A DNA stretch of 49,680 nucleotides, taken from NCBI GenBank assembly GCA_913009835.1, contig CAJVXH010000003.1:1-49680 (forward strand). Direction: 5' to 3'. The stretch is from an uncultured bacterium. Lineage in GTDB: Bacteria; Electryoneota; Electryoneia; Electryoneales; Electryoneaceae. Both the position numbers and the translations under genes were made by a program. Positions 8,879 through 30,768 of the stretch are shown here, piece by piece; positions within the stretch are counted from its first letter, which is position 1; each line of letters begins with the position of its first letter. The notes under the pieces were generated by a model. It was not told the DNA's origin and searched no databases. It worked only from the letters and a program-made list of their open reading frames with translations.

Positions 8879-8883
8879 AGCTT

Positions 8884-11710: not shown

Positions 11711-14700
11711 TTATCCAAGTTCATCCTCACGTCGTTCTGCCTCTTGATCGTTGGACGTTGCTTCATAACGATACCAATCTGCGACTTTCTTCATGATTCC
11801 CGCCACCCTTGGCCATTTTCCTACTAATTCTGAGGCATAATCAGCGTAGTGCACCGCTAAATCCCTTTCTTGTTGTCCACCGTCAAATGGACCTCGTGAT
11901 GTGGTGCCACGACTATTGTAAATACTGGATTCAAAATCACGATCTACTTTATCGTCAGCTATTTCTTCAATAATTTCACAAACTACCGGATCTGGCCATA
12001 TCCCATCTCGCTCGGCAGGTCCCCATTTCAACATTTTTCCAATATAGGCCAAACCAAGCTCCCGATACTTTGTCCTTTCGAGTAGCCCAAGCACTTCTTG
12101 GATCCAATCCTTCAAATACTGTCCATCTAAATTCACCGCCAGTTTCATACCAGGCACACTATGCCAAGATTCTAAGAGATACCAGGACAATTGCTCCATA
12201 TGTTTACTGTCTTCTTCCGACTTATCATTGTCACCCCCACCATGGCGATATCCAACAGCTTCAACAAAGAAAGCAGGATTATTTTCAAGTTCTTCGTGCA
12301 AAAGCAAGCGACCTGCGTTGATGCTAAGCATACGTAGGTAATGAAATTCTATCATTAGTATATCTTTTCTGTCAATTTGAGCAGCTTCAACAAGATAATC
12401 GAGTAGTTGTTTTGCATCATACGGAGATGTTCTAAAATTATCATCATCAAAGGACACAATGAGGCTTTCATTAAGTGCTTTATACACTATATTACTATTC
12501 AACATTTCTTTCTTATCATATGTATGCATTGCTAATATATCTAATGCAAACCTTGGTCTCTTATGAATTATTAATTCTTGCATAATACGGTTAAATAGAT
12601 TAGCATCATCTGACCATACGCAATTTATGCCTCTCCAGAAGCTATATTGCGTATCATCATCGAAGAAAGATACTAGATCTAGAGTATTATTTGAGAGTGG
12701 GAAGCAGATTAAGGCTGCAACTCTTGTGTCCTGATCAAACTTTTCAAGTATCGAAGTCGTTAGATAACTAATAATCCATTCTTCTCCAAGATTCCATATA
12801 GCGCCTTTGACATAAGATTGAGCCATTATCCTACTAGAATTATCCTTACCAAGGCAATCAATCATAGCATGTGAAATGTCATCGCTATGATCAACATCAA
12901 ATAAACAACGTCCTATCTCGTAGGGAGTATCAACAATTTCGGAGAAATCTATTAATGAATCAGTGCCATCATTTTCCAATATATCACGGATAGCTTCAAG
13001 TCGCAGTTCATTCAGTACATTTCTGTTTGACTCCCAATCTGAACGTAGATATTCAAGTTGTGGGTGATTTGAGAAAAGCCAACTATATTTATCAATAAGA
13101 GACGTTGGCGTTAGGTCTCCAACTATACTGGCGAGCTGATCAACAATATCTTGTGGCAAGGACCAATTTGCGTCTGCGAAAGATCTATGTCTATTCACAA
13201 AATCTCGAAGGGCGTTCCACAATTTGACTTTAATGCCACCTTCAGGTGATGAATCTGCGTAGTCCTTCAGGGCTTGCAGCATGAAGGGAAATACTTCTTG
13301 GTGTACATTTTGTAAGTGCTCAACGAGGTCAACCCAACCTGATGGTGTTTTTTGGGCTTCATCAAGGATTAATCCAGATAAGACTTTTAATGAATCCGAA
13401 TATTCATCCCGCGTCGGTCGATTAGGTTCGGAAGGCCAATCTCTCCATAATACAGATCTTGCACCCGGTCCACTCCTGATCGAAAAACTACTTTCGCCCG
13501 GGAGTAATGCTGTTAGGAGCCGCGTAGCTACACTTGGATTGTTGTGACGAATCCTATCAAGAGCAGAGTCTCTTTGCTTGGTATCAGCTCCACACTGCGG
13601 GAATGCAAGCCTGAAGAACGAGAGTAAACTTCTGAATGGACTGTTGACTAAGTTGGTATCTGGCACTATTTCCGTAAGCTTGCTGAGTATCAATGCTACA
13701 CGTGTGAAATACTCCGGGGACCAAGCGAGATGTTCGAGAGCCCAAAGCAGATGTGGGTACTCATAGTTTGACAATACAAGACCCGGCTGTTCATTCCAAA
13801 GAATTAGGATTGATTGTGTTGATGATTTCAGATCTTCTTCTAGGATTCTAAGGAATTCATTTGGCGATGCTTCTGCTAGATTTGTCAACTGGTCAGCGAA
13901 ATCGATCCAAAGCTCACTGGACTTCAAAGCTTCGCCAGTTAGCTCGCGTACAGTTCTATCAACTTGCCACGAAACGTCCTGTCTATCTGAAATCGTTATT
14001 GGTGGATTAGCCGCTGCGAGTGCACCCAGCATAGCAAGAGTATCGGAAATCCCCTTTCTCAGGACCGTTGAATATTTTCGGGTTTTATGTCGGATGCTTG
14101 CAAACGGTTGTTCCTCTGGCGGTAGATCCTGCTTAGGATCACGTTCAAGTAGTACGTATTTTGCATTTTCAATGAAGTGATCAATGTCCTCCCTGCTAAC
14201 AAACTCCGAAATCATTCGCCATGAATCTTCTTTGGCGTTAACGCGCCATTCTGTACCAATTTGCCTGAATGGGGCATCTTGCACTTTCCGCCACTTCGTA
14301 AGTATCAATTTAACATCAAGATAAGCCCTATTTGAAAGACTCTCAATTACTTTCTTATCTCCATCCTTTTGTTCATCCCACTGACCTGCAAGTATTAACG
14401 GTATTAAATCTTGAATACTTTCACCTGTTACCCAATCAGGAGTTTCAAGAGGGATAGTTGCTGTTACTCTCCTATATGCCATAAAACTGCGGCGAGCTAA
14501 GGCTGCAAGCGATCTGGCATTAGCACTAGGTAATTGTTTCTTTAGTATCTCTACTGCCATAGAGGCACGTAGCCTTGGAACTGGAATGTCTATTTTCTGT
14601 ACGTAATCAGATCCAACAGCTAGAAGTACATGGTGACCAGTAGTTATGGCCGAGTTAATAGCATATGCAGATGAGGGGTTAGGAATTACTAGAATTAATG

Positions 14701-15490
14701 GATCTGGTGATGAAGAAAAGTGTCTAAAACTTGATGAATCCTCAATAATTATGCTTTTACTAAACAATTTAGCACCTTCATTATCAGACAAAGATGCAAA
14801 TGATGCTGCAATAAAAGCTAGTGATTCGTCTGTAGTATCAGATCTAATTACTCTTGCTGAAGCTTCCGCATTCTGGATATTAAGCAACTGTTGTACTGCT
14901 TCATGCCTTCCAGATAGATAGAAGTCTGAATAGATCTGAGGTGTTGTGGATGTAGACCATTCAAGCCACCAAGGCTCCAGTGCTTGTACATGTTCTAATG
15001 GTTTGCCGAGCTTGGCAGAAAGCCATACATGAACACCGGTCGCTGTGGATAGCCATGTGATTAAATTGTCAGCATCGTAAACACGAATATCTTTCCATTT
15101 GGCTTCTTTTTTCTTGGTCTGCACCCATGTTTCTTTACCTGCCCAAAGTCTAGGAGTGCAGAAAATGAAAGTGGAATTTGCTAATTCCCCTTCTGCCACT
15201 TGTTTTGTTCGCTTTTCGTAATCACTCTTGATTTTGGAATCAGGATCCTTCCCGACACCCATCTCCCAGTATACTTTACCTGTTGGAACAAACGTACTCT
15301 GGGTCGAATTGTCTGTTTCTCCATCCCAGCCAGCAAATCCAGCACCTTCTTGGGCGCGGAATTCAATCCTATCAGGTTTTGAAGTAGCAAGGACGAGTCT
15401 GCGTATTAGATCAGGAAAATCGTACCGACCTTCAATACGATCAGCCCAATGGGTCAGATCTGTGGCGTTAGCCGAGATTGGATTAGCCAT
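11711..15490 (-). CDS. Large uncharacterised protein, candidate defence protein (REase-like N-terminus, degenerate NTPase-like region, helical C-terminus)
   Basis: 1259-aa intact ORF, visibly AT-richer than the core genes. N-terminal GWDG..VYWEMG..KIKSDYEKRT..FIFCTPRLW..WKDIRVYDADNL. Same strand as, and downstream of, the R-M operon. Confidence 0.6.
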   Translation of the reverse strand: MANPISANATDLTHWADRIEGRYDFPDLIRRLVLATSKPDRIEFRAQEGAGFAGWDGETDNSTQSTFVPTGKVYWEMGVGKDPDSKIKSDYEKRTKQVAEGELANSTFIFCTPRLWAGKETWVQTKKKEAKWKDIRVYDADNLITWLSTATGVHVWLSAKLGKPLEHVQALEPWWLEWSTSTTPQIYSDFYLSGRHEAVQQLLNIQNAEASARVIRSDTTDESLAFIAASFASLSDNEGAKLFSKSIIIEDSSSFRHFSSSPDPLILVIPNPSSAYAINSAITTGHHVLLAVGSDYVQKIDIPVPRLRASMAVEILKKQLPSANARSLAALARRSFMAYRRVTATIPLETPDWVTGESIQDLIPLILAGQWDEQKDGDKKVIESLSNRAYLDVKLILTKWRKVQDAPFRQIGTEWRVNAKEDSWRMISEFVSREDIDHFIENAKYVLLERDPKQDLPPEEQPFASIRHKTRKYSTVLRKGISDTLAMLGALAAANPPITISDRQDVSWQVDRTVRELTGEALKSSELWIDFADQLTNLAEASPNEFLRILEEDLKSSTQSILILWNEQPGLVLSNYEYPHLLWALEHLAWSPEYFTRVALILSKLTEIVPDTNLVNSPFRSLLSFFRLAFPQCGADTKQRDSALDRIRHNNPSVATRLLTALLPGESSFSIRSGPGARSVLWRDWPSEPNRPTRDEYSDSLKVLSGLILDEAQKTPSGWVDLVEHLQNVHQEVFPFMLQALKDYADSSPEGGIKVKLWNALRDFVNRHRSFADANWSLPQDIVDQLASIVGDLTPTSLIDKYSWLFSNHPQLEYLRSDWESNRNVLNELRLEAIRDILENDGTDSLIDFSEIVDTPYEIGRCLFDVDHSDDISHAMIDCLGKDNSSRIMAQSYVKGAIWNLGEEWIISYLTTSILEKFDQDTRVAALICFPLSNNTLDLVSFFDDDTQYSFWRGINCVWSDDANLFNRIMQELIIHKRPRFALDILAMHTYDKKEMLNSNIVYKALNESLIVSFDDDNFRTSPYDAKQLLDYLVEAAQIDRKDILMIEFHYLRMLSINAGRLLLHEELENNPAFFVEAVGYRHGGGDNDKSEEDSKHMEQLSWYLLESWHSVPGMKLAVNLDGQYLKDWIQEVLGLLERTKYRELGLAYIGKMLKWGPAERDGIWPDPVVCEIIEEIADDKVDRDFESSIYNSRGTTSRGPFDGGQQERDLAVHYADYASELVGKWPRVAGIMKKVADWYRYEATSNDQEAERREDELG

Positions 15491-15795: not shown

Positions 15796-18700
15796 CTAGG
15801 AAGACCTACCGACAATCTCCATCAATTTCCCGTAGTCTGTAACTACATCGTATTTCACGTGTTCCGGGTCAATTCTACGATTGATTTCGTCGAAGAACTT
15901 TCGTGCGCATTCAATTTTCGTATGCTCGATGGCTCGTAGCTCCATACTAGACATTGAGCCTTTTGTCTCTGCCACGAAGTAAATGTGCTTGATAGATCCT
16001 TCCTTGAAGGAAATGGCCCAGTCGGGATTGTAGTCACCAACGGGTGTTGGGATCAGGAAACCACGAGGCAGTTTAGCGTAAACCACTACCTCGGCGCTGG
16101 TATCCAATTCTTTAACAAACTCTCGTTCGACTTTGGAGTCGGTGATCGCATAATCATAGATATGATTTTTGAGCTTCTCACCGGCCTTGGTAAAGTCCTG
16201 GCTGCTCTGGTTAGCCGTGAAAATATAGGTATCGTGGGTCTCGGAAATTCCATCGTAACTCAGACGTTCTATGATGATCGTCGCCTTTTGTTCGTTGATC
16301 AAACGAGTCGACTCAGCTAAAAAGTTTTCAGGGTTCTGTTTGAACTGATTAAATACTGTCGGTTCTATTCCGCCCAGCATTTCGGCGATGGTTTTTCGTG
16401 TAAGTTGTGTATTTTCAGCCAATTTACCTAGAAGGTCGTATTTAACCATCGATTGAATTGAAGCCTTAAATTCTTCTGTTATCGTCTTTTGAACTTCAAA
16501 AGCCTGCCCAGCCTTTAGTTGATCGTAGGTTGCCTGATCAACCTGCTCGCCACCTTGTATGGTGTACTGTAAAGGCGTCACCCTTAACTCGTTGTCCAAT
16601 GTGCGGATGCTGTTGCGGATTAGTTCTTTGGAATCAAACTCAACGCGATAAACAGCTTTCCCGTTTATTCGGTTCCAGAGTTCCTTGAATTCCTTCTTTT
16701 CAAAGTTGCTGTTCAATGGGTTGGTTTTGGGCTTGCGGTCATCCCCCACCTCGGGCAACTGGGATTCGCTAAAGATGCCGTTAATTAGAAGCACCACCTG
16801 ATCGGTATAGGGTTTCAGCTCATCTGGCATATCAGCAATTGATCCATTTTTTAGATCTGCGTGATATAACTCTGTCAAATTCCGTTTTCTGTCCACATAG
16901 CTATTTTGTATCAAGAAGAACTCGATATCTGTTGCCATATCATCGCTGACGGTAACATTCCCCTGATCTGTCTGAATGATTTTTCCAAGGAAATATGCTT
17001 TGTCCGCAACACGTGGACGTGATGAAAGGGCGTCACTGATCTCACGCTGCAAGTTGGTCACAAATTCCTTATAGCTTTCGCTAGCGACCACTGTCAGCAC
17101 GTTAATGTCATGCACTGTCGCTGCATGATCCATACGATCGCCGCGCTGATTGACGGACAGTCTTAGACCACGCCCTACTTCCTGACGACGTGAAATTGTG
17201 TTGTCACTGTGCTTTAGCATGCACATCACAAAGACGTTTGGGTTATCCCAACCTTCACGTAGCGCCGAATGCGAGAAGATGAAGCGAACAGGCTCATCAA
17301 ATGACAACAGCCGTTCTTTATCTTTCAGAATCAGATCGTATGCGTCGACATCATCAGACAATCCAGCCTCTTCACCGCGTTTCTTGAAACTTGGATCTTT
17401 CAATTTTTTAGTTTTCTTGTCTATGGCGAAGTATCCATTGTGAGTCCCCCCAACATCTATTTCGGTCAGATGCTTACGGTACGCCTCATTGTCCAATGCC
17501 AACTCGCTTAGATATTCGGCTTTAAGCTGTTCGTATTCCTCTTCGAAAACACGAGCATAATCGCCTTTGTCTTCTGGCTGACTGTAGTCGCGATACTTGG
17601 CTACTTCATCAATAAAGAAAAGCGAGAGAACCTTTATCCCTTGTGCGAAGAGACGTTGTTCCTTCTCTAGGTGCGCCCTTATGGCTTCACGGATCTGAAT
17701 TCTACGAATGGTCGGTTCGGTAACATCTCCAGTTGCCTCACCCGCCGTAAGTTCAACCCCATTGGTGAATTCTACAGTATCTTTATTTGCGTCGATCTGG
17801 GCGATGGTGAAGCCTTGATACTGATCAAGTTGGTTCGACTCAACAAACAGGTCAGTGCCTTTGTTGAGACGCTTCACGACACGTTTAATGCCGTTTCCCT
17901 GACGAACCTCTATCTCTATACGGGCTACCGGGGCATTTTTAGAAATCTCGATGGATTCCAAATATAGATATGCATTTGTCCCAGCCAAGCCTCTCACGGC
18001 AATACCACGAACAGCAATCTTCTTAACCAACTTCTGGTTATAAGCGTCCAAGGCGTCAAGGCGATGGATCTTGTTGTGGGTGGTGCGGTGTGTTGCTGAG
18101 TAACGCAGAATCATCAACGGCTTGAACTTGGCTAAAGCGTTCAGCGTTTTCGCGCCTTCCATCTTCTGCGGTTCATCAAGAACTAGAATGGGTCGGTTGC
18201 TGCTAATGACGTCAATGGGGTGGCGGGACTGGAAGTCATCCAGCTCCTCGTAAATACGACGATTGTCTTTACCTGCGGCATTAAACGCTTGGATGTTGAT
18301 AATCATGACGTTAATGCCAGCATCCGACGAGAAACTCTCCAGGCGGTGTAGTTGTTTGGAATTGTAGATAAAGAAACGCGCTTTTTTTCCGTAGCTCTCG
18401 GTGAAGTGGTCAGCCGTTATTTCCAGCGATTTATACACGCCCTCACGGATGGCAATGCTAGGTACAACAACAATGAACTTGGACCAGCCGTAACGTTTGT
18501 TCATCTCGAAGAAGGTCTTGATGTAGCAGTAGGTCTTGCCAGTACCGGTTTCCATCTCGACATCGAGGTTAATCTTGCATCCGGCGCTTGTACTCAACTC
18601 GTCCGAGAGGGGAAGGTTTTGCCTTCGTTGAACAACATGAATATTTTTGATTAACTCTGTTTCAGTGAGTTGAAGATCACTGTTTCTAAACCCTTCAAGC

Positions 18701-18834
18701 TCGTAGGTAATTTGATCACGACCTGGATCGATACGATATGCAAAACCAGAAGTATTCGCTTGCCCAGCGAAGCAGTCAACCACAGAGTCAACGGCGTTGG
18801 TTTGGAAAGGCTGGATCTTGAATTTCAGTTTCAT
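15796..18834 (-). CDS. res: Type III restriction endonuclease Res subunit
   Basis: [31 protein letters not shown] and QEVGRGLR motifs; C-terminal YNPDWA..FVAETK nuclease motif. Start at 18834 or 18849. Confidence 0.93.
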
Positions 18835-18845
18835 AGCGTAGCCAC

Positions 18846-20789
18846 TCATATGGACTTCACCTCAGTGCTTGGCGACATCTGCTTGAATATCTGCTCCACG
18901 TTAATTTTGACCGCATCGGATACAAAACCGTTATCACGGAAAACCACTCTCAAAGGCTTATAGTTCGCCAACGCTTTAACGAGTTCCTCATCCATACCAG
19001 TATCAAAGCAGGCCACCAAGGCATTTTCATCCACAAAGAAAACGGTCTTTTTCTGGATGGTTTCCTTGCGGATGGGTAGCGACAAGTCCACACCCCAGTC
19101 AAGCAGTACTTGGAACAGTAGGTCTTCAGGGGTGCGGTCAGGCTTGATGTTGTCGGCATATAGATCGAGTTTGTCCTGTTCAAGGGCATCCGGAGTGTAA
19201 TAGATATCTGCCATATTGGATGAGTCGATTTTCAATACACGGAAACCAATATCGAGCTTTTCCGACTCGAGTGATTGGTGGGTTGTTTCTCCCTTGAAGA
19301 GGTCACTCTTCTCTTTCTCCGCCAGCTCATCTTCCATAGCAATCAAATCCGTCTTAATCATTTTCCCAGCACGACGGATTCGTTCTTTGCCGATTTCGGC
19401 AATAGTCTTATAGTTAGCCTTGAATGCCTCGGACTTTTCATCGCAAGATTCTGGTAGCTGGACCATGATATAACTACGATTGCCACCATCATCTGCGTTA
19501 AGCTGCATAGCAGCATGGGCTGTGGTTGCTGAGCCAGCAAAGAAATCCAGAATCAAAGATTCTTTATCGCACGCATGCTCAATGACTCTCTTGATTAACC
19601 TTATCGGTTTAGGATTTTCGAATAGTTTTGCATTAAACAGCATTGATAGATCGCTTGTACCTTCGTCTGTATTTCCCGCATACTCATGCTCCCAAAAATT
19701 TATTGGGGTAAGTCCTCTTGCCCCTGACAAGAACATTTTTATAGATGGCACGGGCTGCATTCCATCAACACCCCAATAGAGTATTCCCTCTTCTTGCAAT
19801 CGAGCAAATTCTTCTTTTGATCGACGCCAAGCATTCGTTGTTGGCTCTGTCGAGAGCCCTGTATTTGGATTAAGTATTGGATAACACAGGTTAGGTCTCT
19901 TTTCCGGCGTAGCCGGATTAAGGAAAGAGGCTCCTTTCCACACGCCTCTAGGATCATTGTCAGGATTAGTGTAGCGAGCGTCCGCTTCTTCAGTTCTCGG
20001 CAGCAAATTTACAATAAAATCACCTGATTTAGCGTACACGAATATGTGTTCAATTACTGTTGTGAAATCTACTGTGTTATTGCTTCTTGTGTATCTTTTC
20101 TGCCATGAAATATCCGATTTGAAGTTTTCTCCGCCGAAAATCTCGTCGCATGCTTTTCTTACATTGTGCGCTTCACCGTCATTGATGCTTATAAAAATTA
20201 CCCCATCATCCTTTAGCAGATTTCTTGCAAGTTTTAGTCTCGGATATACCATTGAAAGCCAGTCCGAGTGAAATCTTCCATTTGATTCAGTGTTCGCCAC
20301 GAGACGATTGCCTTCTTCATCTTTCTGATTAGACCGCTTCAAGAACTCTTCGCTGTTTTCAGCAAAATCGTCCTCATAGATAAAGTCATTCCCAGTGTTG
20401 TACGGAGGGTCGATATAGATCATCTTGACCTTTCCGAGGTAGGTTTCCTGTAGCAGTTTCAAGGCATCCAGATTGTCGCCCTCGATGAAAAGATTCTTCG
20501 TGGTATCAAAGTCCACACTCTCTTCACGGCATGGACGAAATGTCTTAGCGATGGGTGCGTTGGCTGTGAGCAAAGCTTCGCGCTTACCGGGCCAGTTTAG
20601 GTGGTAACGTTCCTGTGGACCTTCCACGATGGATTCCGACAATTCTTGCCGCAGTTGGTCAAAGTCCACCGAAAGCTTGAGTTTGCCGTTCTCATCATGG
20701 GCTTCGGTCACGCAGCCAGGAAACAAGTCACGGATACGAGCGATGTTATCCTGGGTCATGTTCGGCGAGTGCATTCTCATCTTTTCCAT
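18846..20789 (-). CDS. mod: Type III R-M adenine methyltransferase Mod subunit
   Basis: [34 protein letters not shown] and [13 protein letters not shown] motifs. Confidence 0.95.
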
Positions 20790-20801
20790 CGTGTTCGTCC
20801 T

Positions 20802-21488
20802 TTACAGTACAACTGTTGCCAAACGGCGGGTCAGATATCTTATGTCTGCTTTAAGTTTTCGGAGATCGGTATTGATGGCAACCTTGCGATTAAACTGTTT
20901 TTCTTTGTGAAGCCGAGTCTCGTATTTTGCCAACTCTCGCTGTTTGGAACGAATCTGTTCCATTCTTCCTACTTGGGCTTGCAGCTCTTCTCCCTCACGG
21001 GCAGGGAACGGCATTAAAGCTGTCAATATCTGTGCATACAGTGTTTCAAGATCCAACACCACCGGTAATGAGGGACGAGGCGTCTCGCTTGACAGCCAGA
21101 CGCTTTCAAAGTAGTCACTTACCAGCCATTTAGAACTGTCAGCCTCACTAGGTCGTTTATATGAAGCGACAACTTGAATCTTCCCTTCATACCATAACTC
21201 GTATAGGATGGGGAATGGGATTGCCTGGTCGATGCAATGCAAAACTACATGCTTAAGCTCACCCGTTTTAAGAGCAATCCTGAATACCTGAATTTCAGGG
21301 ACTGTCCGTGTTGGCTTCATATTGACCGTTTCGGGAGCTAGTTTGTACTGCCAGACTATTTTTTCAACCTGGCGAACAAACAGCTGTTTGACGGCAGTGC
21401 TTGGCCGTGCATGCTCATAGATCTTACTCTTGGGCAGCACACGTCCAAAGGAAGCGCTCTTTGGATAGTCGAAGAGGACGGTTTTCAT
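20802..21488 (-). CDS. DUF4391-family protein
   Basis: FGRVLPKSKIY, IVWQYKLAPET, IDQAIPFP and C-terminal coiled coil with EKQFNRKVAIN. Lies between the helicase and mod. Confidence 0.82.
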   Translation of the reverse strand: MKTVLFDYPKSASFGRVLPKSKIYEHARPSTAVKQLFVRQVEKIVWQYKLAPETVNMKPTRTVPEIQVFRIALKTGELKHVVLHCIDQAIPFPILYELWYEGKIQVVASYKRPSEADSSKWLVSDYFESVWLSSETPRPSLPVVLDLETLYAQILTALMPFPAREGEELQAQVGRMEQIRSKQRELAKYETRLHKEKQFNRKVAINTDLRKLKADIRYLTRRLATVVL

Positions 21489-24400
21489 TCTTCTTCCTGC
21501 ACTACGAAAAAGGCTACGAGTTCGAAATCATCGAGCCCCGCAATTGCATTCACCAGCGCAGTTGTCTTACCGCCAGTGAACAGGCTATCAATATCCCCTT
21601 CTTCTTTAACGTCAATCATTGAACGGATGGCTGAGCTAAGCAGGTCGGAATAAGCTTTCATGTCCCTGCCTTCATCTGTCCGATTATTGAACAGGCGACA
21701 TACATTTTGAATAGGTTCCTCCTGACCTTTGCAGCTAGTACGCACCAGGTCAAGAAGTGGTTTTACTTCGGTATGGTTGGCAATGACTTGACCATCGTTT
21801 GCGATATACGTCAGGTAGTAGGGATGCAACCTGTTCTGCTGGTTTATGTTAACGGCTTGATTGATATTACGAAGTGCGAAAATCACACCAGGGTGTAACC
21901 CTAGTTCGGGCATGGACGGTACAACTGCATGCATTCCGTTTGGTACGTTGGCAAGGTCGCCATTGGTTTTCACATAGTTCAGCAAGTCCATCCGAAAATC
22001 GTTCAAGCCAAGATCGGTGATAGAAACGCCGGTTTTTAAATCTTCAAGTTCGATCACTTCATCCTGGAGACGCCGAAGCTGCTCTTTTCGGTAGGAGACT
22101 TCGCTGCTCTTTGCCGTCAGAACATTGTCATCGCCGGATGCCGTTACGTCGGCGATTATCATCCGGTTCTCGACTCGTTCCTTAAGGTTAATGTATTCAT
22201 CTAAAGAAATATCCGGCCAATAGTTGACCAACTGAATGGTTTCATTAATGGACCCAATTCGGTCAATACGGCCAAAGCGTTGGATAATGCGGACGGGATT
22301 CCAGTGAATGTCGTAATTTATGACGTAGTCACAATCTTGAAGGTTTTGACCTTCTGAAATGCAGTCTGTGCCGATGAGAATATCTAACTCGTGTGGTTCA
22401 TCTGGCAGCACCAGTGCCTTTTCCTTGGCGCGGGGTGAAAAAAGTGTCAGCAGTGACTGAAAATCGTAGCTCTTTTTGAGTGTTGATTTTGGTGCGTCCT
22501 TGCCCGTCACTTTTCCCGTATGCAAGTCCTTAGTTGCTAAAATATCATCAGCCAGGTTGTCGTAAAGGTAATTGGCGGTGTCGGCAAAGGCTGTGAAGAT
22601 CAGAACCTTTTTATTGCCGTCATTGATGGGGTTTTCAATCTTGTTCTGGATAAGAGTTGTTAGGTGTTGAAGCTTGGCGTCGTCTTCAGGGGTGACTTTT
22701 GCCATTGAAACGAGCAAAGTGTTAATGACATCCAGATCGCAGTTCAGGTCATGTTCCCAGGATGGTACGTCCATATCTGCAAGGTTGATCTTGACCTTAC
22801 CGCCAATTTCATCATCCCCCAAGCTAGAAATATCATCTTCCTCAGCTTCAAGATTTTCCAGATAATCGGTACTGTCAGAAACGCTACCTGCGCTTCCAGT
22901 GGTCTTGAATAATTCGATTTTCTTCAGCGTACGATTGTGGTTGTCATACAAGCTTATTAGTGTAAGACGGAAGGCTTCAACAGAACTTTCAAGCCTCTTC
23001 AGAAGATTGGTCGTCATCAACGCCTGAAGACTTTTTTCCCGGTCAGCTTGACGTAGCTTGCCTTTACCACCTTCAACCTGTGTGTCATACAAGTCTTCAT
23101 ATTTCTTTAGTCGACTAGGCAGGATATAGCTAATCGGGGCATAAACGGCCAAATTGAGCATCGATAGCTGTTCAAAGATCTCGTTGAAATCCATGACACC
23201 CGGGCGCTCAGTAAGAGGAGAGCGGAACGACAAGGGTTTGCGACGCTCAGGAAACGGTCCAATATCGCTGACGTCATAATAAGTCTGGATATGCTTGCGC
23301 GAACGGGCAATGGTGACGCAATCCAGCAATTCAAAGAAATCAAAATCAAGGGATTCCAGAATAGCCCGTGGTGTGCGTTTTTCTAGGGGCAACGTCGTCC
23401 ACAGGTTGAAAACCATTTGGGCATTGCGGAATATTTCTTCCACCGTTTTGCCGGTTCGCAACTTCTTGCTAAGAACATCGGAGTCGCCTTCATAAGCCAG
23501 TGCGAGTTGGTTTCGCAGATCATTGAATCTGTTGTTGACAGGAGTAGCAGACAGCATCAAAACCTTTGTATTGACTCCCTGTCGGATGACCTGATTCATC
23601 AACTTCTGATATCGTGTTTCCCTGTCTTTAACTGCATCGTTATTACGGAAATTGTGTGATTCGTCGATGACAACCAGATCATAGTTTCCCCAGTTGACAC
23701 GGTTTAGGGGAATGCCAAACGAATCGCCCGACGTGCGGGACAGGTCTGTATGGCACAGGACATCATAATTGAAGCGATCTTTGGAGAAGATGTTGGTGGT
23801 AAGATTGCTGTTATAGTTTAACCAGTTGTCCGCAAGTTTCTTCGGACACAGGACAAGCACTGACCGGTTTCTAAGCTCATAGTATTTGATTACGGCTAGC
23901 GCCGAAAAAGTTTTCCCAAGCCCTACACTATCAGCCAAGATACAGCCGTTATAGGTTTCGAGTTTGTTGATAATACCAATCGCTGCATCACGCTGGAAGT
24001 TAAAAAGTTTGTTCCAGACTAATGTATCCTGATAGCCCGTCCGGTCGTTTGGCAAAACGTCTTCGTCGATATCATCAAGGAAATCACTGAAAATATTGTA
24101 GAGCATCAAGAAGTAGATGCGTTCAGGCGAATTTTCCTGATAGACTGAGTCGATATGATCACAGATTGCAGCCGTCACATCTTCTAGTTTGCCAGGATCA
24201 TTCCAGATTTGGTTAAAAAGCTGAAGGTAGGTCGAAGTAAATGCTGATTCATCAATGCGGTTTACGATGTTTGAAATGGCGTCTCCTCGCTGATATCCCA
24301 AGTCTACAGCAGTAAAGCCATGTAGCGGCATATAAGCTACTTCCGGCTCTGACCCTTGGATACATGCAAACTGCTGCATTGGGGACTTAGACTTATTGGA

Positions 24401-24757
24401 ACGGAATTTTGCTTTACGCCGCATCCAATCTGCGCATTCGCGGGCGATAGCCCGTTGGGTAAGTTTGTTTCGAAGCTGGATTTCAAACTCAGATCCATAA
24501 AGACTGCGTTCGCGGTCCGCCTTAGGAATGAAGAATTCTCGACTTTCCTTATTGATACTGTCTGTGACTTCATTCGGTACAAAAGTCGGTGCGGTGAAAA
24601 TGAATTCTAAGGACTCAATCTTTGAAAGTTCTGATTTCAGGGATTCATAGGCATAGATAGAAAAGCATGACGCAGCGATCTTAAGTTTGGTTTTGGGTTG
24701 GATGGAATACTTTAGATCGTCCCCCAGCAATGAATTGATATTGTCGATGATCTTCAT
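21485..24757 (-). CDS. SNF2-like SF2 helicase/ATPase with degenerate PLD-like N-terminus
   Basis: ILADSVGLGKT, DESHNFR, MLSATPVNN, TDCISEGQNLQ and QRFGRIDRIG motifs. Confidence 0.9.
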   Translation of the reverse strand: MKIIDNINSLLGDDLKYSIQPKTKLKIAASCFSIYAYESLKSELSKIESLEFIFTAPTFVPNEVTDSINKESREFFIPKADRERSLYGSEFEIQLRNKLTQRAIARECADWMRRKAKFRSNKSKSPMQQFACIQGSEPEVAYMPLHGFTAVDLGYQRGDAISNIVNRIDESAFTSTYLQLFNQIWNDPGKLEDVTAAICDHIDSVYQENSPERIYFLMLYNIFSDFLDDIDEDVLPNDRTGYQDTLVWNKLFNFQRDAAIGIINKLETYNGCILADSVGLGKTFSALAVIKYYELRNRSVLVLCPKKLADNWLNYNSNLTTNIFSKDRFNYDVLCHTDLSRTSGDSFGIPLNRVNWGNYDLVVIDESHNFRNNDAVKDRETRYQKLMNQVIRQGVNTKVLMLSATPVNNRFNDLRNQLALAYEGDSDVLSKKLRTGKTVEEIFRNAQMVFNLWTTLPLEKRTPRAILESLDFDFFELLDCVTIARSRKHIQTYYDVSDIGPFPERRKPLSFRSPLTERPGVMDFNEIFEQLSMLNLAVYAPISYILPSRLKKYEDLYDTQVEGGKGKLRQADREKSLQALMTTNLLKRLESSVEAFRLTLISLYDNHNRTLKKIELFKTTGSAGSVSDSTDYLENLEAEEDDISSLGDDEIGGKVKINLADMDVPSWEHDLNCDLDVINTLLVSMAKVTPEDDAKLQHLTTLIQNKIENPINDGNKKVLIFTAFADTANYLYDNLADDILATKDLHTGKVTGKDAPKSTLKKSYDFQSLLTLFSPRAKEKALVLPDEPHELDILIGTDCISEGQNLQDCDYVINYDIHWNPVRIIQRFGRIDRIGSINETIQLVNYWPDISLDEYINLKERVENRMIIADVTASGDDNVLTAKSSEVSYRKEQLRRLQDEVIELEDLKTGVSITDLGLNDFRMDLLNYVKTNGDLANVPNGMHAVVPSMPELGLHPGVIFALRNINQAVNINQQNRLHPYYLTYIANDGQVIANHTEVKPLLDLVRTSCKGQEEPIQNVCRLFNNRTDEGRDMKAYSDLLSSAIRSMIDVKEEGDIDSLFTGGKTTALVNAIAGLDDFELVAFFVVQEEE

Positions 24758-24966
24758 TTGTTTGATTCCTTCATGCTGCGATCTGCAGCACTACCAGCCT
24801 TCACCCATTCATCCACTTCGTCCTTCATGAATTTCCATAACCGACCTGCACGATGAGCAGGCATATTTTTAGTCGAGATCCACTTATAGACCGTATCCCG
24901 CTTGATACCAAGGTGTTCAGCGATCTCATCAACAGAAAGCCAACGTTCGGTGAGAGGCGTTTTCAT
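24754..24966 (-). CDS. Excisionase-like HTH DNA-binding protein (HTH_17)
   Basis: WLSVDEIAEHLGIKRDTVYKWI..MPAHRAGRLWKF..EVDEWV. First gene of the operon, overlapping the helicase start by 4 nt. Confidence 0.88.
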   Translation of the reverse strand: MKTPLTERWLSVDEIAEHLGIKRDTVYKWISTKNMPAHRAGRLWKFMKDEVDEWVKAGSAADRSMKESNK

Positions 24967-25502: not shown

Positions 25503-27308
25503 ATGCGTTACCTGCCATTGTTAATCGCGCTTCTGCTGCCTGCACTCGCATATCCGCAACTCGCTTGGGAATCCCATGTTATTGACGGTGCATTCGAGGG
25601 TGCTTTCGAAGTGTGTGTTGCCGATGTAAATAGTGACGGTACCAAAGACGTGATTGGTACTGCCTATTTTGGGGACGACATCGTATGGTATGACAACATT
25701 GATGGGACAGGATTAAACTGGCTTGCGCACAGCTTAGATTCAGAGTTTTTGGGTGCCACTAGCCCTGATGCTGCAGATATCGATGGTGATGGTGATTGCG
25801 ATATCCTTGCCGCAGCAGACGGTTTGGATGAAATCGCTTGGTGGGAAAACGTGGATGGCGAAGGTTTGAACTGGACAAAACACTCCATAGATGCTGCATT
25901 TGACAACGCCGAATCTGTGCGTGCAGCTGACATTGATGGTGATGGTGATCAAGACGTTATTGGGGCGGCGTGGGTTGGTGATGATATCGTCTGGTATGAA
26001 AACACGCAGGGTGATGGATTGTCTTGGACACCTCATTCGTTAACCAGCGAATTTGATGGTGCTAATTGCGCCATCGCTGCGGATGTGGATTCAGATGGCG
26101 ACTTGGACATTATCGGTTCAGCTTCAATTGCCGGTGACGTTACATGGTGGGAAAATCTGGATGGCAACGGGTTGAACTGGTCCGAACATGTAATTGACGG
26201 CGAGTTTAGTGGCGCATATTTCGTGCACGCTACAGACGTTGATCTTGATGGTGACCTTGATGTGCTTGGTGCTGCTTACTTGGCTGATGAAATCGCGTTG
26301 TGGGTAAATATGAACGGTGACGGTACGGTATGGGAAAAACGTACTGTTGGTGGTAACTACAACGGGGCTTGGAGCGTTTCCACGGATGACATTGATGACG
26401 ACGGTGATATTGATATTCTAGGAGCAGCCGCATTTGCTGATGATATTTCGTGGTGGGAAGACGCGGACGGCAATAGTCAAAACTGGATCAAACACACCAT
26501 CGACGGCAATTTCGATGGTGCCCGTTGTGTAGTTACGGCCGACCTTGACCAAGATGGCGATTCGGATATCATTGGTGCAGCTCAGCTGGATTATTCGATA
26601 GCCTGGTGGGAACAAGTTCCCTTCCCGGTCCAACTCACGCTCACGCCAACATCACCTTTGACAATCCCGGCTGAAGGTGGCACCTTGGTCTACGATGCAC
26701 AACTGGTCAGCACGTTGCCCAACGCATATCCAGGTATTTACTACTGGACAAGCCTACTGTTGCCGAATGGCAATGAGTACGGTCCGTTGCTTACACAGCT
26801 ATTCAACCTACAGTCGTACATGGACTACACTGGCGTTGGTTTCACCCAGAACATTCCCGGATATGCACAAGCTGGTGACTACGAGTTCATCGCGCATGTT
26901 GGATACCAGCAGGGTTTAAACATCAGCGATTCCTTCGCGTTCAGTAAGGAAGGTGTATCCATCACTTCGAGGTCCTTTGTCAGCTGGGAATCAACTGGTT
27001 CGTTCACAGCTGTAACATCAGATGAATCAATAGAAATCCCCATTGAATTCCAGGTCAGCGATTCGTACCCAAATCCGTTTAACCCGGCGACGACGGTTTC
27101 CGTGGTGTTACCAAAGGCGTCTAAACTCAACGTCACCGTGGTTAACATCCTCGGCCAGCAGGTCGCAGAGCTGGCGAACGGTCAGTTCAGTGCGGGTAAT
27201 CATAATCTGACATTCGATGCATCAAACATGGCGAGCGGATTGTACTTCATTCACGCGTCCGTTCCCGGTCAGATGAATCAGGTGCAGAAGGTTATGCTGG
27301 TGAGGTAA
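25503..27308 (+). CDS. Secreted FG-GAP/VCBS repeat beta-propeller protein with C-terminal sorting (T9SS/FlgD-Ig-like) domain
   Basis: Signal peptide; seven ~51-aa repeats of ADIDGDGDxD..IxWWEN; C-terminal YPNPFNPATT..NILGQQV..ASGLYF..KVMLVR. Confidence 0.85.
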   Translation: MRYLPLLIALLLPALAYPQLAWESHVIDGAFEGAFEVCVADVNSDGTKDVIGTAYFGDDIVWYDNIDGTGLNWLAHSLDSEFLGATSPDAADIDGDGDCDILAAADGLDEIAWWENVDGEGLNWTKHSIDAAFDNAESVRAADIDGDGDQDVIGAAWVGDDIVWYENTQGDGLSWTPHSLTSEFDGANCAIAADVDSDGDLDIIGSASIAGDVTWWENLDGNGLNWSEHVIDGEFSGAYFVHATDVDLDGDLDVLGAAYLADEIALWVNMNGDGTVWEKRTVGGNYNGAWSVSTDDIDDDGDIDILGAAAFADDISWWEDADGNSQNWIKHTIDGNFDGARCVVTADLDQDGDSDIIGAAQLDYSIAWWEQVPFPVQLTLTPTSPLTIPAEGGTLVYDAQLVSTLPNAYPGIYYWTSLLLPNGNEYGPLLTQLFNLQSYMDYTGVGFTQNIPGYAQAGDYEFIAHVGYQQGLNISDSFAFSKEGVSITSRSFVSWESTGSFTAVTSDESIEIPIEFQVSDSYPNPFNPATTVSVVLPKASKLNVTVVNILGQQVAELANGQFSAGNHNLTFDASNMASGLYFIHASVPGQMNQVQKVMLVR

Positions 27309-27339
27309 TAAATCACGTTTGCAATTCCTGATAGACTAA

Positions 27340-27366
27340 AAGGGGGCGATGTACAATCGTCCCCTT
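27340..27366. terminator. Probable bidirectional intrinsic terminator
   Basis: AAGGGGGCGAT-gtaca-ATCGTCCCCTT hairpin between convergent genes. Confidence 0.55.
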
Positions 27367-27473
27367 GTTCGTTTATCATTTCGACTTCAGCCAATGCCAC
27401 AGCACACTGGCACCTTCGAGTGCAGATTCTGCGATCTTGCCGATCCTTTTCCAGGGGATTCTTGCCAAAAACA

Positions 27474-28214
27474 TCAGTCATCCTCCCCAGATACACGATC
27501 ACCCGGATCATCAAAGTCAGATTCAACGATGACACCAAAGGTCTGGCGACATTCATCACGCAAGGACATTGCGATATCCAGCTCATCCTGTGTGACGACC
27601 CGCTCTACCGAACACTTAATCTCGGCCCAGCGATAGCTGTTGCGTTGAATGTCATCCAGACTGAACCGTGTAACGACCGCAATTGCCGGTGCTTTTGACC
27701 TTGCAAGCCGCTGAACGTGATTACGCCAGTGCTTGATGCTGGTCGGTGACAGGTTGAATACGACAAGCTGTGGTTTGCTATCCAGAAACGTTAAGACAAA
27801 CAGACGGGCTTTATCCTTTGCTTGGGATGCGTGGATTTCACTTCCCGGCCTAGAAGTCACCTTGCCATCAATTGCGCTATATCGGGGGATCTGTTCACCT
27901 TCGACCCACAATGCACTAACGGTTTGACTGTAGACTACGATCCCGGTGAAAACGTTGTTTGGGACATCAACTTGGTCTTCTTGGTCAACACCATAGGAAT
28001 CACCATTGTCGATAAACATCCGGTGTCTGCCTGATGGACTGTGGTCGATGCGGACCCGAACAAGTGACGGTGGGATATTTTCCACCATCGTCGCGACTTC
28101 AGTTTCTACATCGATGTTGCTGAGTTGACTGATCTCGTCCAGAATAACAATGCCCGATTCATCAGAACCGGGCTTGCGAGCGACAGTACTGCCGTTGCTT
28201 TTTTGTGTTGTCAT
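27474..28214 (-). CDS. Phage-type hypothetical protein, possibly ssDNA-binding
   Basis: FTGIVV..ALW..SAIDG..RLFVL..NLSPTSIK..VVTRFSL pattern and an acidic C-terminal tail (ESDFDDPGDRVSGEDD). Coupled to the nuclease gene by a 4-nt overlap. Confidence 0.5.
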   Translation of the reverse strand: MTTQKSNGSTVARKPGSDESGIVILDEISQLSNIDVETEVATMVENIPPSLVRVRIDHSPSGRHRMFIDNGDSYGVDQEDQVDVPNNVFTGIVVYSQTVSALWVEGEQIPRYSAIDGKVTSRPGSEIHASQAKDKARLFVLTFLDSKPQLVVFNLSPTSIKHWRNHVQRLARSKAPAIAVVTRFSLDDIQRNSYRWAEIKCSVERVVTQDELDIAMSLRDECRQTFGVIVESDFDDPGDRVSGEDD

Positions 28215-29122
28215 GCAGCTTCCTCCATTTGAATGGTGAGTGTTTCAATCGATTTGACCTGGGACGCTGAAAGACCGTCAATTCGGCTATCGCCAGTGCA
28301 AATACCAGAATAGGTGCATGCAGGACAGTTGATCGTGCCCGGATTTCGTGGGAAAACACCACGGTTGATGTTTGATGCTATTGCAGCTACATCACGCTTT
28401 AGCACTTTCAGTTGGTCGCGTGAACGCGAAGTGAAACGTCGTGGATCGCCACGTTCATCACCTGCTTGGAATCCCTTTCCATTCCGCTTGTATGGTATAT
28501 GATCCCGTAACTGGTAGTACGCGATGACAAGTTTTTCCGGCGGAATTTCAAGCATCCGCATCGTGCCGTCTGGCAGTTTGAAGACTCCTTTCCAACAGGC
28601 TAGCGCGTACAATCCAAGCTGATAGTCCACGTCCAAGAACGTCTGGTTCGGTGGAAACTTCGATGACTTAAAGTCCAATAGCGTGAAGCTGTTGTCATCA
28701 TTCTGGCGAACCTGGTCAACCGTTCCGCTGAATGTGTTCCTGCCAACCTTCAGCACAAACTTGGCTTCAGACAGGATCACGTTTGCATCGTAGTTGTAGT
28801 CCTTCTCACGGTAGTTCTTCAGCATTTCGACCGCTTCATCCACCAGCTTTGCGATCGTTGCTTCACGGTCTTCCTTCCAGAAAATCGGAACATCGGATTC
28901 ATCCCCATGGAATTCCATCTGATCCAGTATTTCCAAATACCGTTCACGAATGTCCAACGACCAATCTATCGTGTGCAGTTCATCAATAATCTGATGAAGG
29001 ACGCTTCCGTGGACCGCTGCGATAGAACGGAATACAGAAGGGATTTGGTTTACGTACCGGTATTTGAAGCTGGCGGGACACCATAGGTAGGACTTGATGA
29101 GGGATTGCCTTAGAACGTTGAT
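28211..29122 (-). CDS. PD-(D/E)XK nuclease (RecB/AddB/Cas4-like, Fe-S cysteines)
   Basis: GTVDQV..LLDFKSS, YQLGLYA and C-terminal CPACTYSGIC. The frame stays open upstream of 28957 through SLIKSYLWCPASFKYRY and HGSVLHQ to an ATC at 29122 behind a strong SD. Confidence 0.82.
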   Translation of the reverse strand: MNVLRQSLIKSYLWCPASFKYRYVNQIPSVFRSIAAVHGSVLHQIIDELHTIDWSLDIRERYLEILDQMEFHGDESDVPIFWKEDREATIAKLVDEAVEMLKNYREKDYNYDANVILSEAKFVLKVGRNTFSGTVDQVRQNDDNSFTLLDFKSSKFPPNQTFLDVDYQLGLYALACWKGVFKLPDGTMRMLEIPPEKLVIAYYQLRDHIPYKRNGKGFQAGDERGDPRRFTSRSRDQLKVLKRDVAAIASNINRGVFPRNPGTINCPACTYSGICTGDSRIDGLSASQVKSIETLTIQMEEAA

Positions 29123-29142
29123 AGATAACCACCCCCTTTCGA

Positions 29143-29901
29143 TCAGTTTGGCGACAGAAAATACTGTGATACGCGCCTGTTCAGGTTTTCGGAGCTGAAC
29201 TTTTCCTGCTTGGTCAGTACATCGGTAGCCGCGTTATAGACACCCCATCTTGTATCATCTTCAATCGCATTGAACACCTTAGCCTGGGTTGTGATGGGTA
29301 GGTTGATTTCGGCGAAAAACCGTTGGATATCAGCACGTTTCATCCGTTTGCGTGTCAATTCAGTCAGCGTTGGCAGGACAATGTGCAGCCGGTCACCTAC
29401 CCTCGTCAACTGACGTGCAGCAACACGCATTTCACGATCAAAGTTCTGGCTTCCCCAATGCTTGAATCGGAAGCCACCCAGCATGAACGACAGCATCATG
29501 CCATTTGCACACACAAGACGAACAGCATTGAATTCCAAACCGAAGGTTGTGGAACCGTCGTATGAACTCACAGCATCCAACGTACACGCCACGACATCAC
29601 CGACCTTCACTTCACCTGAAGTCTGCGATAGCAAATACCGTTGCCGGAATTTCTTCCCGTTCCACAGGGTTTGGTGATCATTGAACGCCATACCAGTGTT
29701 TGCTAAAAGATCTTCAGCCACTTGCACAACGTCACTGTTTTTCACGAGCTTGTATTCGTTCGAAACAACACCTACTTCCTTAGCATCATCGTTGGGATTA
29801 AGCACTACAGCCATTCGGCTGCTGGGATCGCCATTTGTCCTGCGAAGTGGCTGTAGTTCGACTGGCACAAATGGGGATGGCGGTGGTTTGGATTTAATCA
29901 T
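29143..29901 (-). CDS. DUF932-family phage/plasmid protein
   Basis: VGVVSNEYKLVKN, SSYDGST..RLVCANGM..FKH and TRWGVYNAAT motifs. AGGAGG precedes ATG 29901. Confidence 0.82.
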   Translation of the reverse strand: MIKSKPPPSPFVPVELQPLRRTNGDPSSRMAVVLNPNDDAKEVGVVSNEYKLVKNSDVVQVAEDLLANTGMAFNDHQTLWNGKKFRQRYLLSQTSGEVKVGDVVACTLDAVSSYDGSTTFGLEFNAVRLVCANGMMLSFMLGGFRFKHWGSQNFDREMRVAARQLTRVGDRLHIVLPTLTELTRKRMKRADIQRFFAEINLPITTQAKVFNAIEDDTRWGVYNAATDVLTKQEKFSSENLNRRVSQYFLSPN

Positions 29902-30134
29902 ACGTCCTCCTGATGTTTGGTTTCCGTTCATCTTCTTATACCGGATTTTGCGGATGTCGGACATAAACTGGTGCTGGCTGGTTGTGGCAACATGCTTGCG
30001 TTAGCAGGAAGCAAAAGGAAAGGCTGGCACATATTGCTATGATGGTGAACACTGGATGACCTTGCGGAAGCCTTGCGAGAGGATTTACCTTGTGACCTTC
30101 CAAAGTACGTTACTTCAGCTGTGGCAGTTGCTGC

Positions 30135-30282: not shown

Positions 30283-30337
30283 AGGTCTTAGGAACCTGTG
30301 CCGTAAGGTGTGGGGGTTCGAATCCCCCCTCGCGCAC
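30283..30337 (+). tRNA. 3' half of tRNA-Leu(UAG): att-site duplicate, not a complete tRNA
   Basis: Anticodon arm AGGT-CTTAGGA-ACCT, long variable arm, T-arm GGGGG-TTCGAAT-CCCCC and acceptor 3' strand CTCGCGCA. The 5' acceptor strand (GCGCGAG) and D-arm are absent. Confidence 0.8.
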
Positions 30338-30768
30338 AAGCTGTATTAGATCGAGATAACAGTGATTCCTCAGGATTGCGGTTGAAAACAATCCTGCTTC
30401 ATTATTGTGGATGAGATCGCCGGATTGAAACATTGATCCGGCGATTCATTGTTTCTTGGAAACTTCTCAAATCCTGACCGGGTGAGCGCTAGACTTCAGC
30501 CCTTGAGCTCTGGAGTGAATGTCCTTATCTTCCGTTTTCGTGGAAACAATGAGCACATTGGCAGTGTAACATCAGTTGTGACTGCCAGTGAAAATGCCTT
30601 GAACCAATTGATGATTTATGACCGTAATTCAAAGTTAGTATTGCAGATACAATGTTGACGGCAGAGAGTACAGTCCTGCAAATTACTCTGTCGCAACTCT
30701 ATTACTTGTAACGCAAGGTGTTGGGGCGCGAATCCGTCTTGAAGTGTTTACCAAGCGAGGAGTACAGC

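Follow-up and report, generated by a model that had tools for sequence, protein, structure and literature searches.

The operon and its proteins

The window analyzed here is a 49,680-nucleotide (nt) stretch of contig CAJVXH010000003.1 (GCA_913009835.1) from an uncultured Electryoneota bacterium. Its minus strand carries five intact, co-oriented open reading frames (ORFs; 15796-24966) encoding, in this order, a helix-turn-helix (HTH) protein, an SNF2-family ATPase, a DUF4391 protein, and the Mod and Res subunits of a restriction-modification (R-M) system of Type III. The last four form a core, referred to here as the cassette, that is widespread; comparison of its members points to a real, widespread form of Type III R-M system that is probably chimeric. 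The excisionase-type HTH_17 protein (24754..24966; 70 residues; Pfam HTH_17, E 3e-15) is followed by the SNF2-family ATPase (21485..24757; 1090 residues; SNF2-rel_dom and Helicase_C domains) and by DUF4391 (20802..21488; 228 residues; isoelectric point 9.7; Pfam DUF4391, E 8e-62). Mod (18846..20789; 647 residues) contains an N6_N4_Mtase domain and scores 787 bits with the PADLOC model MTase_III, and Res (15796..18849; 1017 residues) contains ResIII and RE_endonuc domains and scores 1127 bits with REase_III. The HTH and SNF2 genes overlap by 4 nt, as do those for SNF2 and DUF4391, and 12 bp separate DUF4391 from mod. A further 4-nt overlap joins mod and res if the first ATG of res is used; homologues begin at residue 6, which would instead leave an 11-bp gap. 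The ORF coordinates, the overlaps, and the family scans bear out the description of five intact, tightly coupled genes given in an earlier sequence-only reading of this DNA. The window contains no Rfam match.

Mod is a beta-class amino-methyltransferase, with DPPY at residues 127-130, a hypervariable recognition domain at about 225-390, and motif I at 415-420. Res is a superfamily 2 (SF2) ATPase with a Walker A motif (99-106), DEPQ (225-228), and a C-terminal PD-(D/E)XK nuclease whose P942-D943 and E961-x-K963 are intact, and it matches the EcoP15I Res structure 4ZCF (E 8e-73). The class and motif order of Mod, the ATPase and nuclease motifs of Res, and the adjacent, co-oriented mod and res genes are those of a Type III system, and both subunits, judged from their sequences, keep all Type III catalytic motifs. 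Another cassette Mod, M1.Lla021I, is encoded right after DUF4391 on pUL021B and is assigned the N6-methyladenine (m6A) motif GGAGA in the supplement of PMC12418389. According to that supplement it is active in its native strain, Lactococcus lactis UL021; it is distant from the Mod of the window. The accessible part of the same article also describes Lcr007I, a cloned Type III system that restricts phage and may lie inside or outside the cassette clade.

The SNF2 protein consists of a degenerate phospholipase D (PLD)/HKD region (about residues 1-235), an intact helicase core, and a family-specific C-terminal domain. Its helicase motifs are intact (Walker A, 276-283; DESH, 365-368; SAT, 403-405; motif VI, 826-833) and are invariant over 60 SNF2 sequences at 40-87% identity. 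Along its full length it matches the PADLOC model C3a139 (HKD+Snf2) with 432 bits. The same genome encodes, on contig C231, a paralogue that is 41% identical over the full length and has an intact HxKx4D...GSxN motif, and relatives with a live HKD match Pfam PLDc_2. The SNF2 protein of the window has none of the HKD residues at the positions where this paralogue keeps them, and an intact HxK...GSxN nuclease site is absent from it. The paralogue alignment and the PLDc_2 matches of the live relatives thus confirm the prediction of a PLD-like N terminus lacking HKD. The same is seen in 44 of 45 Type III-linked SNF2s, namely, 41 of 42 aligned cassette sequences and all 3 further ones. Because the outgroups are live, this loss of HKD is the derived state. 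One complete SNF2-DUF4391-Mod-Res cassette (L151:7569-10826) has a live HKD and could be a transitional form with two nucleases. At another locus (L092:9685-16137), the SNF2 of a complete cassette lies within a 2150-residue frame with a RecD2/TraA-like helicase in front, which may be a genuine fusion or a read-through. The genome itself contains two more HKD-SNF2 genes, on contigs C231 and C100; the partner of the former is cut off by the contig end.

Linkage and joint loss of SNF2 and DUF4391

Linkage of the four genes was assessed from several starting points. The DUF4391-seeded set consisted of the best 80 of 378 matches, which biases it to close relatives, and one of the 80 loci was cut by a contig end. 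SNF2 lay directly upstream of DUF4391 in 78 of the 79 informative loci, so the gene order is not due to chance. Downstream of DUF4391, Mod was present at 71 of the 80 loci; of the 9 loci without it, 7 stop at a contig edge. In an unbiased family search of 301 genomes, DUF4391 was found in 24, and the cassette Res family was present in 22 of these; the other two were a contig end and a fragment. DUF4391 is therefore nearly always beside SNF2 and Mod-Res.

The relationship is asymmetric when approached from Res. Sampling of 401 plus 301 genomes listed 90 places with this Res family, most of which are represented in the 80 regions examined. A near-full Res was present in 75 regions; a contig end lay too close in 17 of these, leaving 58 informative loci. 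Both SNF2 and DUF4391 were present in 34 (one DUF4391 being detected by Pfam only), while 1 had DUF4391 with an SNF2 cut by the contig, 1 had an SNF2 remnant, and 22 had neither. Within the nearest Res clade (31 loci), the corresponding numbers were 24 with the module, 1 with a remnant, and 6 without. On the Res tree, SNF2 and DUF4391 were lost jointly, with at least about ten independent losses, and the module-less Mod-Res copies that were inspected sit mostly among housekeeping genes. These linkage counts indicate that the module needs Mod-Res, that Mod-Res does not need the module, and that the two extra genes are lost together; the 22 module-less relatives suggest that Mod and Res are sufficient without it. 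The idea that SNF2 and DUF4391 form a distinct defence complex independent of Mod and Res has become unlikely, because the module lacks an intact nuclease motif and is almost never found apart from Mod-Res.

We compared evolutionary distances across 74 complete cassettes and the query (75 in total). Distances among SNF2, DUF4391, the Mod core, and Res were strongly correlated (rho 0.89-0.95), with values of 0.94 for SNF2-Res, 0.95 for SNF2-DUF4391, and 0.91 for SNF2-Mod core. Against any cassette member, the Mod recognition domain gave a rho of -0.04 to -0.01; it is exchanged freely, independently of the rest of the cassette. Since correlation of this kind follows from shared descent, the co-divergence shows that the genes travel as a unit, not that their products are in physical contact. 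SNF2 and DUF4391 behave as a single accessory module of Type III R-M, one of the two roles originally proposed for them.

It is very improbable that SNF2 and DUF4391 are a hitchhiking relic of an HKD-SNF2/Type IIG system, or a helper of element mobility, with no functional link to Mod-Res. The dead nuclease, the truncated partner, and the repeated joint losses could be explained in this way. However, SNF2 is the most conserved member of the cassette despite its dead PLD domain (median pair identity of 68%, versus 62% for Res), its helicase motifs are invariant, and the module co-diverges with Res across phyla and almost never occurs without Mod-Res.

Spacing within the 74 complete cassettes was uneven. 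Insertions of >250 bp were never found between SNF2 and DUF4391 but occurred 28 times between DUF4391 and Mod and 25 times between Mod and Res. Defence-type genes, e.g., SIR2-HerA, AlbA_2, GmrSD, TIR, and Abi, made up 50 of the 62 inserts scanned. Such gathering of defence genes would suit a second explanation, that SNF2-DUF4391 is a separate layer of defence that uses the mark of Mod or guards Mod-Res, acting either as a non-cutting replication block of the BREX/DISARM kind or by arrest when Res is inhibited. The basic character of DUF4391, with its conserved lysines, is compatible with this, and SNF2 ATPases are core to BREX type 3, BR systems, and DISARM, as given in the available part of PMC12839542. 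The module, however, does not track the recognition domain and contains no effector domain; it was not found with Mod alone, and Res is kept throughout. We consider this explanation improbable.

The HTH gene is a less regular companion. An HTH gene like that of the window precedes 21 of the 99 cassette SNF2 genes with upstream room; at other loci WYL or XRE-type HTH regulators occupy its place, with WYL-type genes before SNF2 in some. The HTH protein resembles Mad1 of the MADS system (NCBIfam MAD1, 76.7 bits, under the cut-off of 80), and an alignment of 12 upstream regions showed no conserved operator. The HTH_17 protein thus appears to be an optional regulator, and the original picture of a "five-gene" system under HTH autoregulation is not supported.

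Two further arrangements of Mod-Res were noted. At five loci (L041, L048, L107, L110, and L132), two or three full mod genes stand in tandem before one res, and such arrays would give one nuclease several specificities. At two others (L115:7436-10285 and L153:8064-10979), a different, DrmD-like SNF2 (688-712 bits; cut-off, 950) lies directly before Mod-Res. These belong to another Res subclade, without DUF4391, and represent a second, independent SNF2/Type III pairing.

An HKD-SNF2/Type IIG-like sister pair

An SNF2-seeded search of 79 plus 251 genomes, from which 19 loci were taken, revealed a sister system. Three loci had a dead HKD and were followed by DUF4391-Mod-Res (one DUF4391 being frameshifted). 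The other 16 had a live HKD; in 10 of these a large methyltransferase lay downstream (one split and one cut by the contig), 2 were cut by a contig end, and 4 were distant, with other neighbors. The large partners are Eco57I-type enzymes of 1200-1520 residues with an NPPY motif, classified as Type IIG by PADLOC, and the HKD was live in all 10 SNF2s paired with such a partner. The sister SNF2s are 41-45% identical to that of the window and match the same C3a139 model (423-427 bits, compared to 432 for the window).

The N-terminal domain of the large partners is related to DUF4391. A profile-profile comparison (hhalign) of DUF4391 with the partner N terminus gave a probability of 78% (E 1.8e-5; 96 columns), compared to at most 4.8% for five controls, namely, four other segments taken from these proteins and one alignment that had been reversed; a deeper alignment (124 sequences) gave 57% (E 1.1e-4). 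Pfam DUF4391 matches the N terminus of 5 of the 7 partners scanned, under its curated cut-off (E 1e-4 to 0.02). Among 120 further IIG-like homologues, PF14335 was precomputed on 45, and with a cassette-derived DUF4391 profile the top-scoring domain fell within the N-terminal 250 residues in all 120, with 57 at E<1e-3 and none elsewhere. DUF4391 is thus likely homologous to the domain at the N terminus of Eco57I/Type IIG-like methyltransferases, and the relationship, though remote, is consistent.

Structural comparison of DUF4391 yielded no clear match. Its AlphaFold model (predicted local distance difference test [pLDDT] score of 96.5) shows an alpha/beta domain (residues 1-160) and a C-terminal helical hairpin with a conserved EKQFN at its tip; the protein is basic, with conserved lysines. 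Foldseek returned nothing at E<=0.001, whether the query was the entire protein or residues 1-160, and a wider fold search with the whole model returned generic helical hairpins only. With residues 1-160, the best Z score of the wider search was 5.0, and 8 of 50 entries were, by our reading, restriction-endonuclease-like (Z 2.9-3.8); the list includes the N-terminal domain of the Type IIG enzyme BpuSI (Z 3.8; root mean square deviation, 3.8; 106 residues aligned) and two HsdR nuclease domains. These weak matches would fit a degenerate nuclease-like fold, yet their Z scores are within the background range. In the alignment columns, an acid is present at position 42 in 90 of 134 sequences and K/R at position 74 in 127 of 134, while position 72, that of the catalytic E, is E in 14 of 134. 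A profile search of Protein Data Bank (PDB) sequences with DUF4391 gave no match, and the protein atlas gave its own cluster only. A match to the start of the Res nuclease (25 columns, 5.7%, E 0.007 among 11 comparisons) was not trusted. The few long DUF4391 fusions (SNF2-DUF4391, PglZ-DUF4391, and DUF4391-unknown) resemble the outcome of deletions and were given no weight; in the PglZ-DUF4391 fusion P0265 both halves are truncated, and it probably arose by deletion between a BREX locus and a cassette.

A live HKD with the IIG partner, a dead HKD with the Type III partner, and the homology of DUF4391 together lead us to regard the cassette as a likely chimera, in which a nuclease-dead motor and a presumed docking domain have been rewired to a Type III Mod-Res. 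The link between the cassette and the HKD-SNF2/Type IIG-like pair is new here. In trees of the helicase part, groups linked to IIG and groups linked to Type III are interleaved as sisters without a resolved order. We infer that the swap went from IIG to Type III.

Mobility, proposed role, and known systems

The cassette sits inside an integrated element inserted at tRNA-Leu. The right attachment site of this element (30283..30341, plus strand) is a 59-bp repeat of the 3' portion of tRNA-Leu(TAG); it agrees at 100% of its positions with the complete tRNA-Leu(TAG), which lies on contig C45 of the same genome. In a genome of the same genus (G026), an intact tRNA-Leu stands immediately before the gene that is upstream of tig, and another (G027) has a related element without a cassette in the stretch examined. 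The GC content of the operon is 0.44-0.47, versus about 0.50-0.58 in the tig-clpP-clpX-lon region. Right after the full tRNA-Leu, contig C45 (8265-14176) encodes an integrase-like protein and a close primase paralogue, which suggests tandem elements at one site. Other element cargo (7639-11025 and 25503-29964) comprises an IS256-family transposase, a P4-type primase-like protein, a secreted FG-GAP repeat protein, a PD-(D/E)XK nuclease, and DUF932. A 1259-residue ORF (11711-15490, minus strand; GC content of about 0.40) lies 305 bp downstream of res on the same strand. It matches no Pfam or NCBIfam family and gives a weak PADLOC match only (PD-Lambda-4_A, E 2e-6); its look-alikes in the protein atlas are unnamed clusters, some fused to a HigA-type HTH. 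As it is absent from all 83 other loci checked, we treat it as a separate candidate defence gene.

The cassette is sporadic in the phylum and has close relatives far outside it. Its Res family is present in 2 of 79 phylum genomes, with that of the window counted, and in none of 3 same-genus genomes. All five genes recur on a plasmid of the gammaproteobacterium Methylotuvimicrobium alcaliphilum 20Z, with 88% identity in SNF2 and 77% in Res. SNF2 matched 117 plasmid records and 5 phage records. In E. coli the cassette is found directly after repA on IncFIB plasmids, together with phage-like recombination genes (L003:1-16509), and when one E. coli plasmid copy served as the query for near-identical sequences, 10 of 5426 genomes matched, E. 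coli CFT073 not being among those listed.

SNF2-DUF4391 might instead protect the host by stripping or stalling Res on unmethylated self DNA (restriction alleviation), which would allow the cassette to move into a new cell, or to change its recognition domain, without lethal consequences. The two-gene StyLTI system kills naive recipients on transfer. The high mobility of the cassette, as seen in the plasmid records, the close gammaproteobacterial relative, and the patchy occurrence in the phylum agree with such a role, as do the constant replacement of the Mod recognition domain, the lack of an intact nuclease motif in the module, and the location of most of the inspected module-less copies among housekeeping genes. 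However, two-gene Type III systems are also plasmid mobile (27-28% EcoP15I-like matches), and the sister motor carries a live nuclease, so that the ancestral role would have been offensive. On balance, we regard host protection as unlikely.

In textbooks, Type III enzymes exemplify a helicase serving as a diffusion switch; they have been studied almost only as two-gene systems. Mod places m6A on one strand of a short asymmetric site, and Res uses ATP as a switch and cuts upon meeting a second enzyme; cleavage depends on ATP and on two sites in inverse orientation. For EcoP15I, Mod2Res methylates one strand, ATP triggers one-dimensional diffusion, and cutting follows collision, as described in the accessible part of PMC4490356. 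The best explanation of the cassette, in which we place about even confidence, is that the SNF2 motor, docked via DUF4391 on Mod-Res, assists the cutting of unmethylated incoming DNA. The methyltransferase body of an ancestral two-gene HKD-SNF2/Type IIG-like system would have been replaced by Mod-Res, and its freed N-terminal domain would have stayed as the adaptor DUF4391, gaining or keeping the helical hairpin. The SNF2 nuclease would then have decayed because Res now cuts. SNF2 would be a double-stranded DNA translocase acting on Mod2Res by pushing it, loading it, or clearing its path, so that protein roadblocks are removed or the two-site rule is relaxed, and DUF4391 would link the dead motor with Mod-Res. 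A tether between the motor and the site-recognizing enzyme would be the simplest role, because in the sister system SNF2 holds the nuclease and the methyltransferase includes the DUF4391-like domain in its own chain. As Mod-Res alone persists in many lineages, the module would improve restriction without being essential. A bolder version is possible, though we incline against it: a four-subunit, two-motor machine in which SNF2, via DUF4391, actively drives the Type III holoenzyme, with powered movement replacing passive diffusion, and which would cut single-site, wrongly oriented, or protein-coated invader DNA that evades classical Type III enzymes. Such a machine would constitute a Type III subtype of its own, occurring in roughly 60% of the Res family.

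A weak pointer to Res as the contact partner of the module comes from module-less copies: in 9 of 11 sister pairs, these depart more from the conserved columns of Res, and the C-terminal 400 residues hold 86 versus 45 deviations. Several observations weigh against assisted cutting by a chimeric cassette. The extra Res deviation may be general decay (2 of the 11 module-less Res are truncated), and Mod shows no clear deviation pattern in module-less copies. Mod-Res without the module is common (22/58, and 6/31 in the nearest clade), several such loci having a full-length Res; four incomplete loci (L030, L033, L042, and L072) have a gap between SNF2 and DUF4391; and the L151 cassette keeps its live HKD. 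The homology of DUF4391 to the IIG-like domain is remote: a broader DUF4391 profile reaches E<1e-3 in only 6 of 120 homologues, and a reciprocal search finds 7 of 192 real sequences, the window's own DUF4391 not being among them (E 15), compared to 0 of 384 shuffled or reversed controls. Besides the background-level fold scores, hhalign of DUF4391 with HSDR_N (0.3%) and HSDR_N_2 (0.1%) was not significant. Finally, the SNF2 tree fixes neither the direction nor the number of partner swaps, and a single Type III clade is neither rejected (approximately unbiased test, p-AU 0.25) nor shown.

A second motor, better conserved and passed over by annotation tools, is present in a large share of natural Type III relatives, and DUF4391 now has a first plausible origin and role. 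The proposal is directly testable, as cassettes are already at hand in organisms that grow in culture (Lactococcus lactis UL021, E. coli IncFIB plasmids, and Methylotuvimicrobium 20Z).

No description of the SNF2-DUF4391-Mod-Res unit was found in the literature searched, with most subscription papers and bioRxiv supplements outside its scope. In the accessible parts of that literature, DUF4391 is mentioned in two papers only, as an apparent slip for DUF7941 (bioRxiv 10.64898/2026.04.21.720040) and as a row of an enrichment table (PMC7784981). To that extent the sequence-only reading, which knew of no functional characterization, is supported. By its sequence features the operon is a Type III R-M system and differs from DISARM, BREX/BR, and MADS. 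Class I DISARM and the Type-2 BREX-related system (HKD-SNF2, DUF499, DUF3780, and methylase), in the available part of PMC12839542, likewise have an SNF2 protein beside an adenine methyltransferase in a defence operon. Class I DISARM was rejected, with no DrmA, DrmB (DUF1998), DrmC, DrmD, or DrmMI in or beside the operon. DrmD, suggested as a relative in the sequence-only reading, proved the wrong kin (150 bits against a cut-off of 610); the nearest relative is the HKD-SNF2 and Type IIG-like pair. BREX/BR was rejected in the absence of PglZ, BrxC, DUF499, and DUF3780 among the 19 window proteins scanned, and the SNF2 protein scored 120 bits with the PLD-antiphage model (cut-off, 1100). From the MADS mad1-8 set, as given in the accessible part of PMC10853773, only the Mad1-like HTH is present, below its cut-off. 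In the available part of PMC6546367, the helicase family is listed under the name "HKD+Snf2" (cluster 139) and occurs in the vicinity of Type III CRISPR loci; a CRISPR-accessory role was rejected, as the window contains no cas operon.

The closest comparisons are with EcoP15I and the HKD-SNF2/Type IIG-like pair. With EcoP15I (4ZCF) the cassette shares a beta-class Mod with an internal recognition domain, a Res combining an SF2 ATPase with PD-(D/E)XK, and the mod-res order. In contrast to EcoP15I, the cassette has two extra, co-diverging genes, and its Res forms a distinct clade, about 28% identical to EcoP15I-like plasmid proteins and scoring 378 bits with NF012027 against a cut-off of 564. 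A PLD+SNF gene beside a Cj0031-like Type II R-M gene is tabulated in Table 3 of PMC9881135, and those loci may belong to the same family as the pair. Pair and cassette share a helicase of the C3a139 family and a partner domain related to DUF4391. The pair has an intact HKD and one large NPPY methyltransferase, whereas in the cassette the HKD is lost, DUF4391 is free, and marking and cutting would fall to Mod-Res. The comparison illustrates how modules for cutting and marking are exchanged among restriction systems while the motor is shared.

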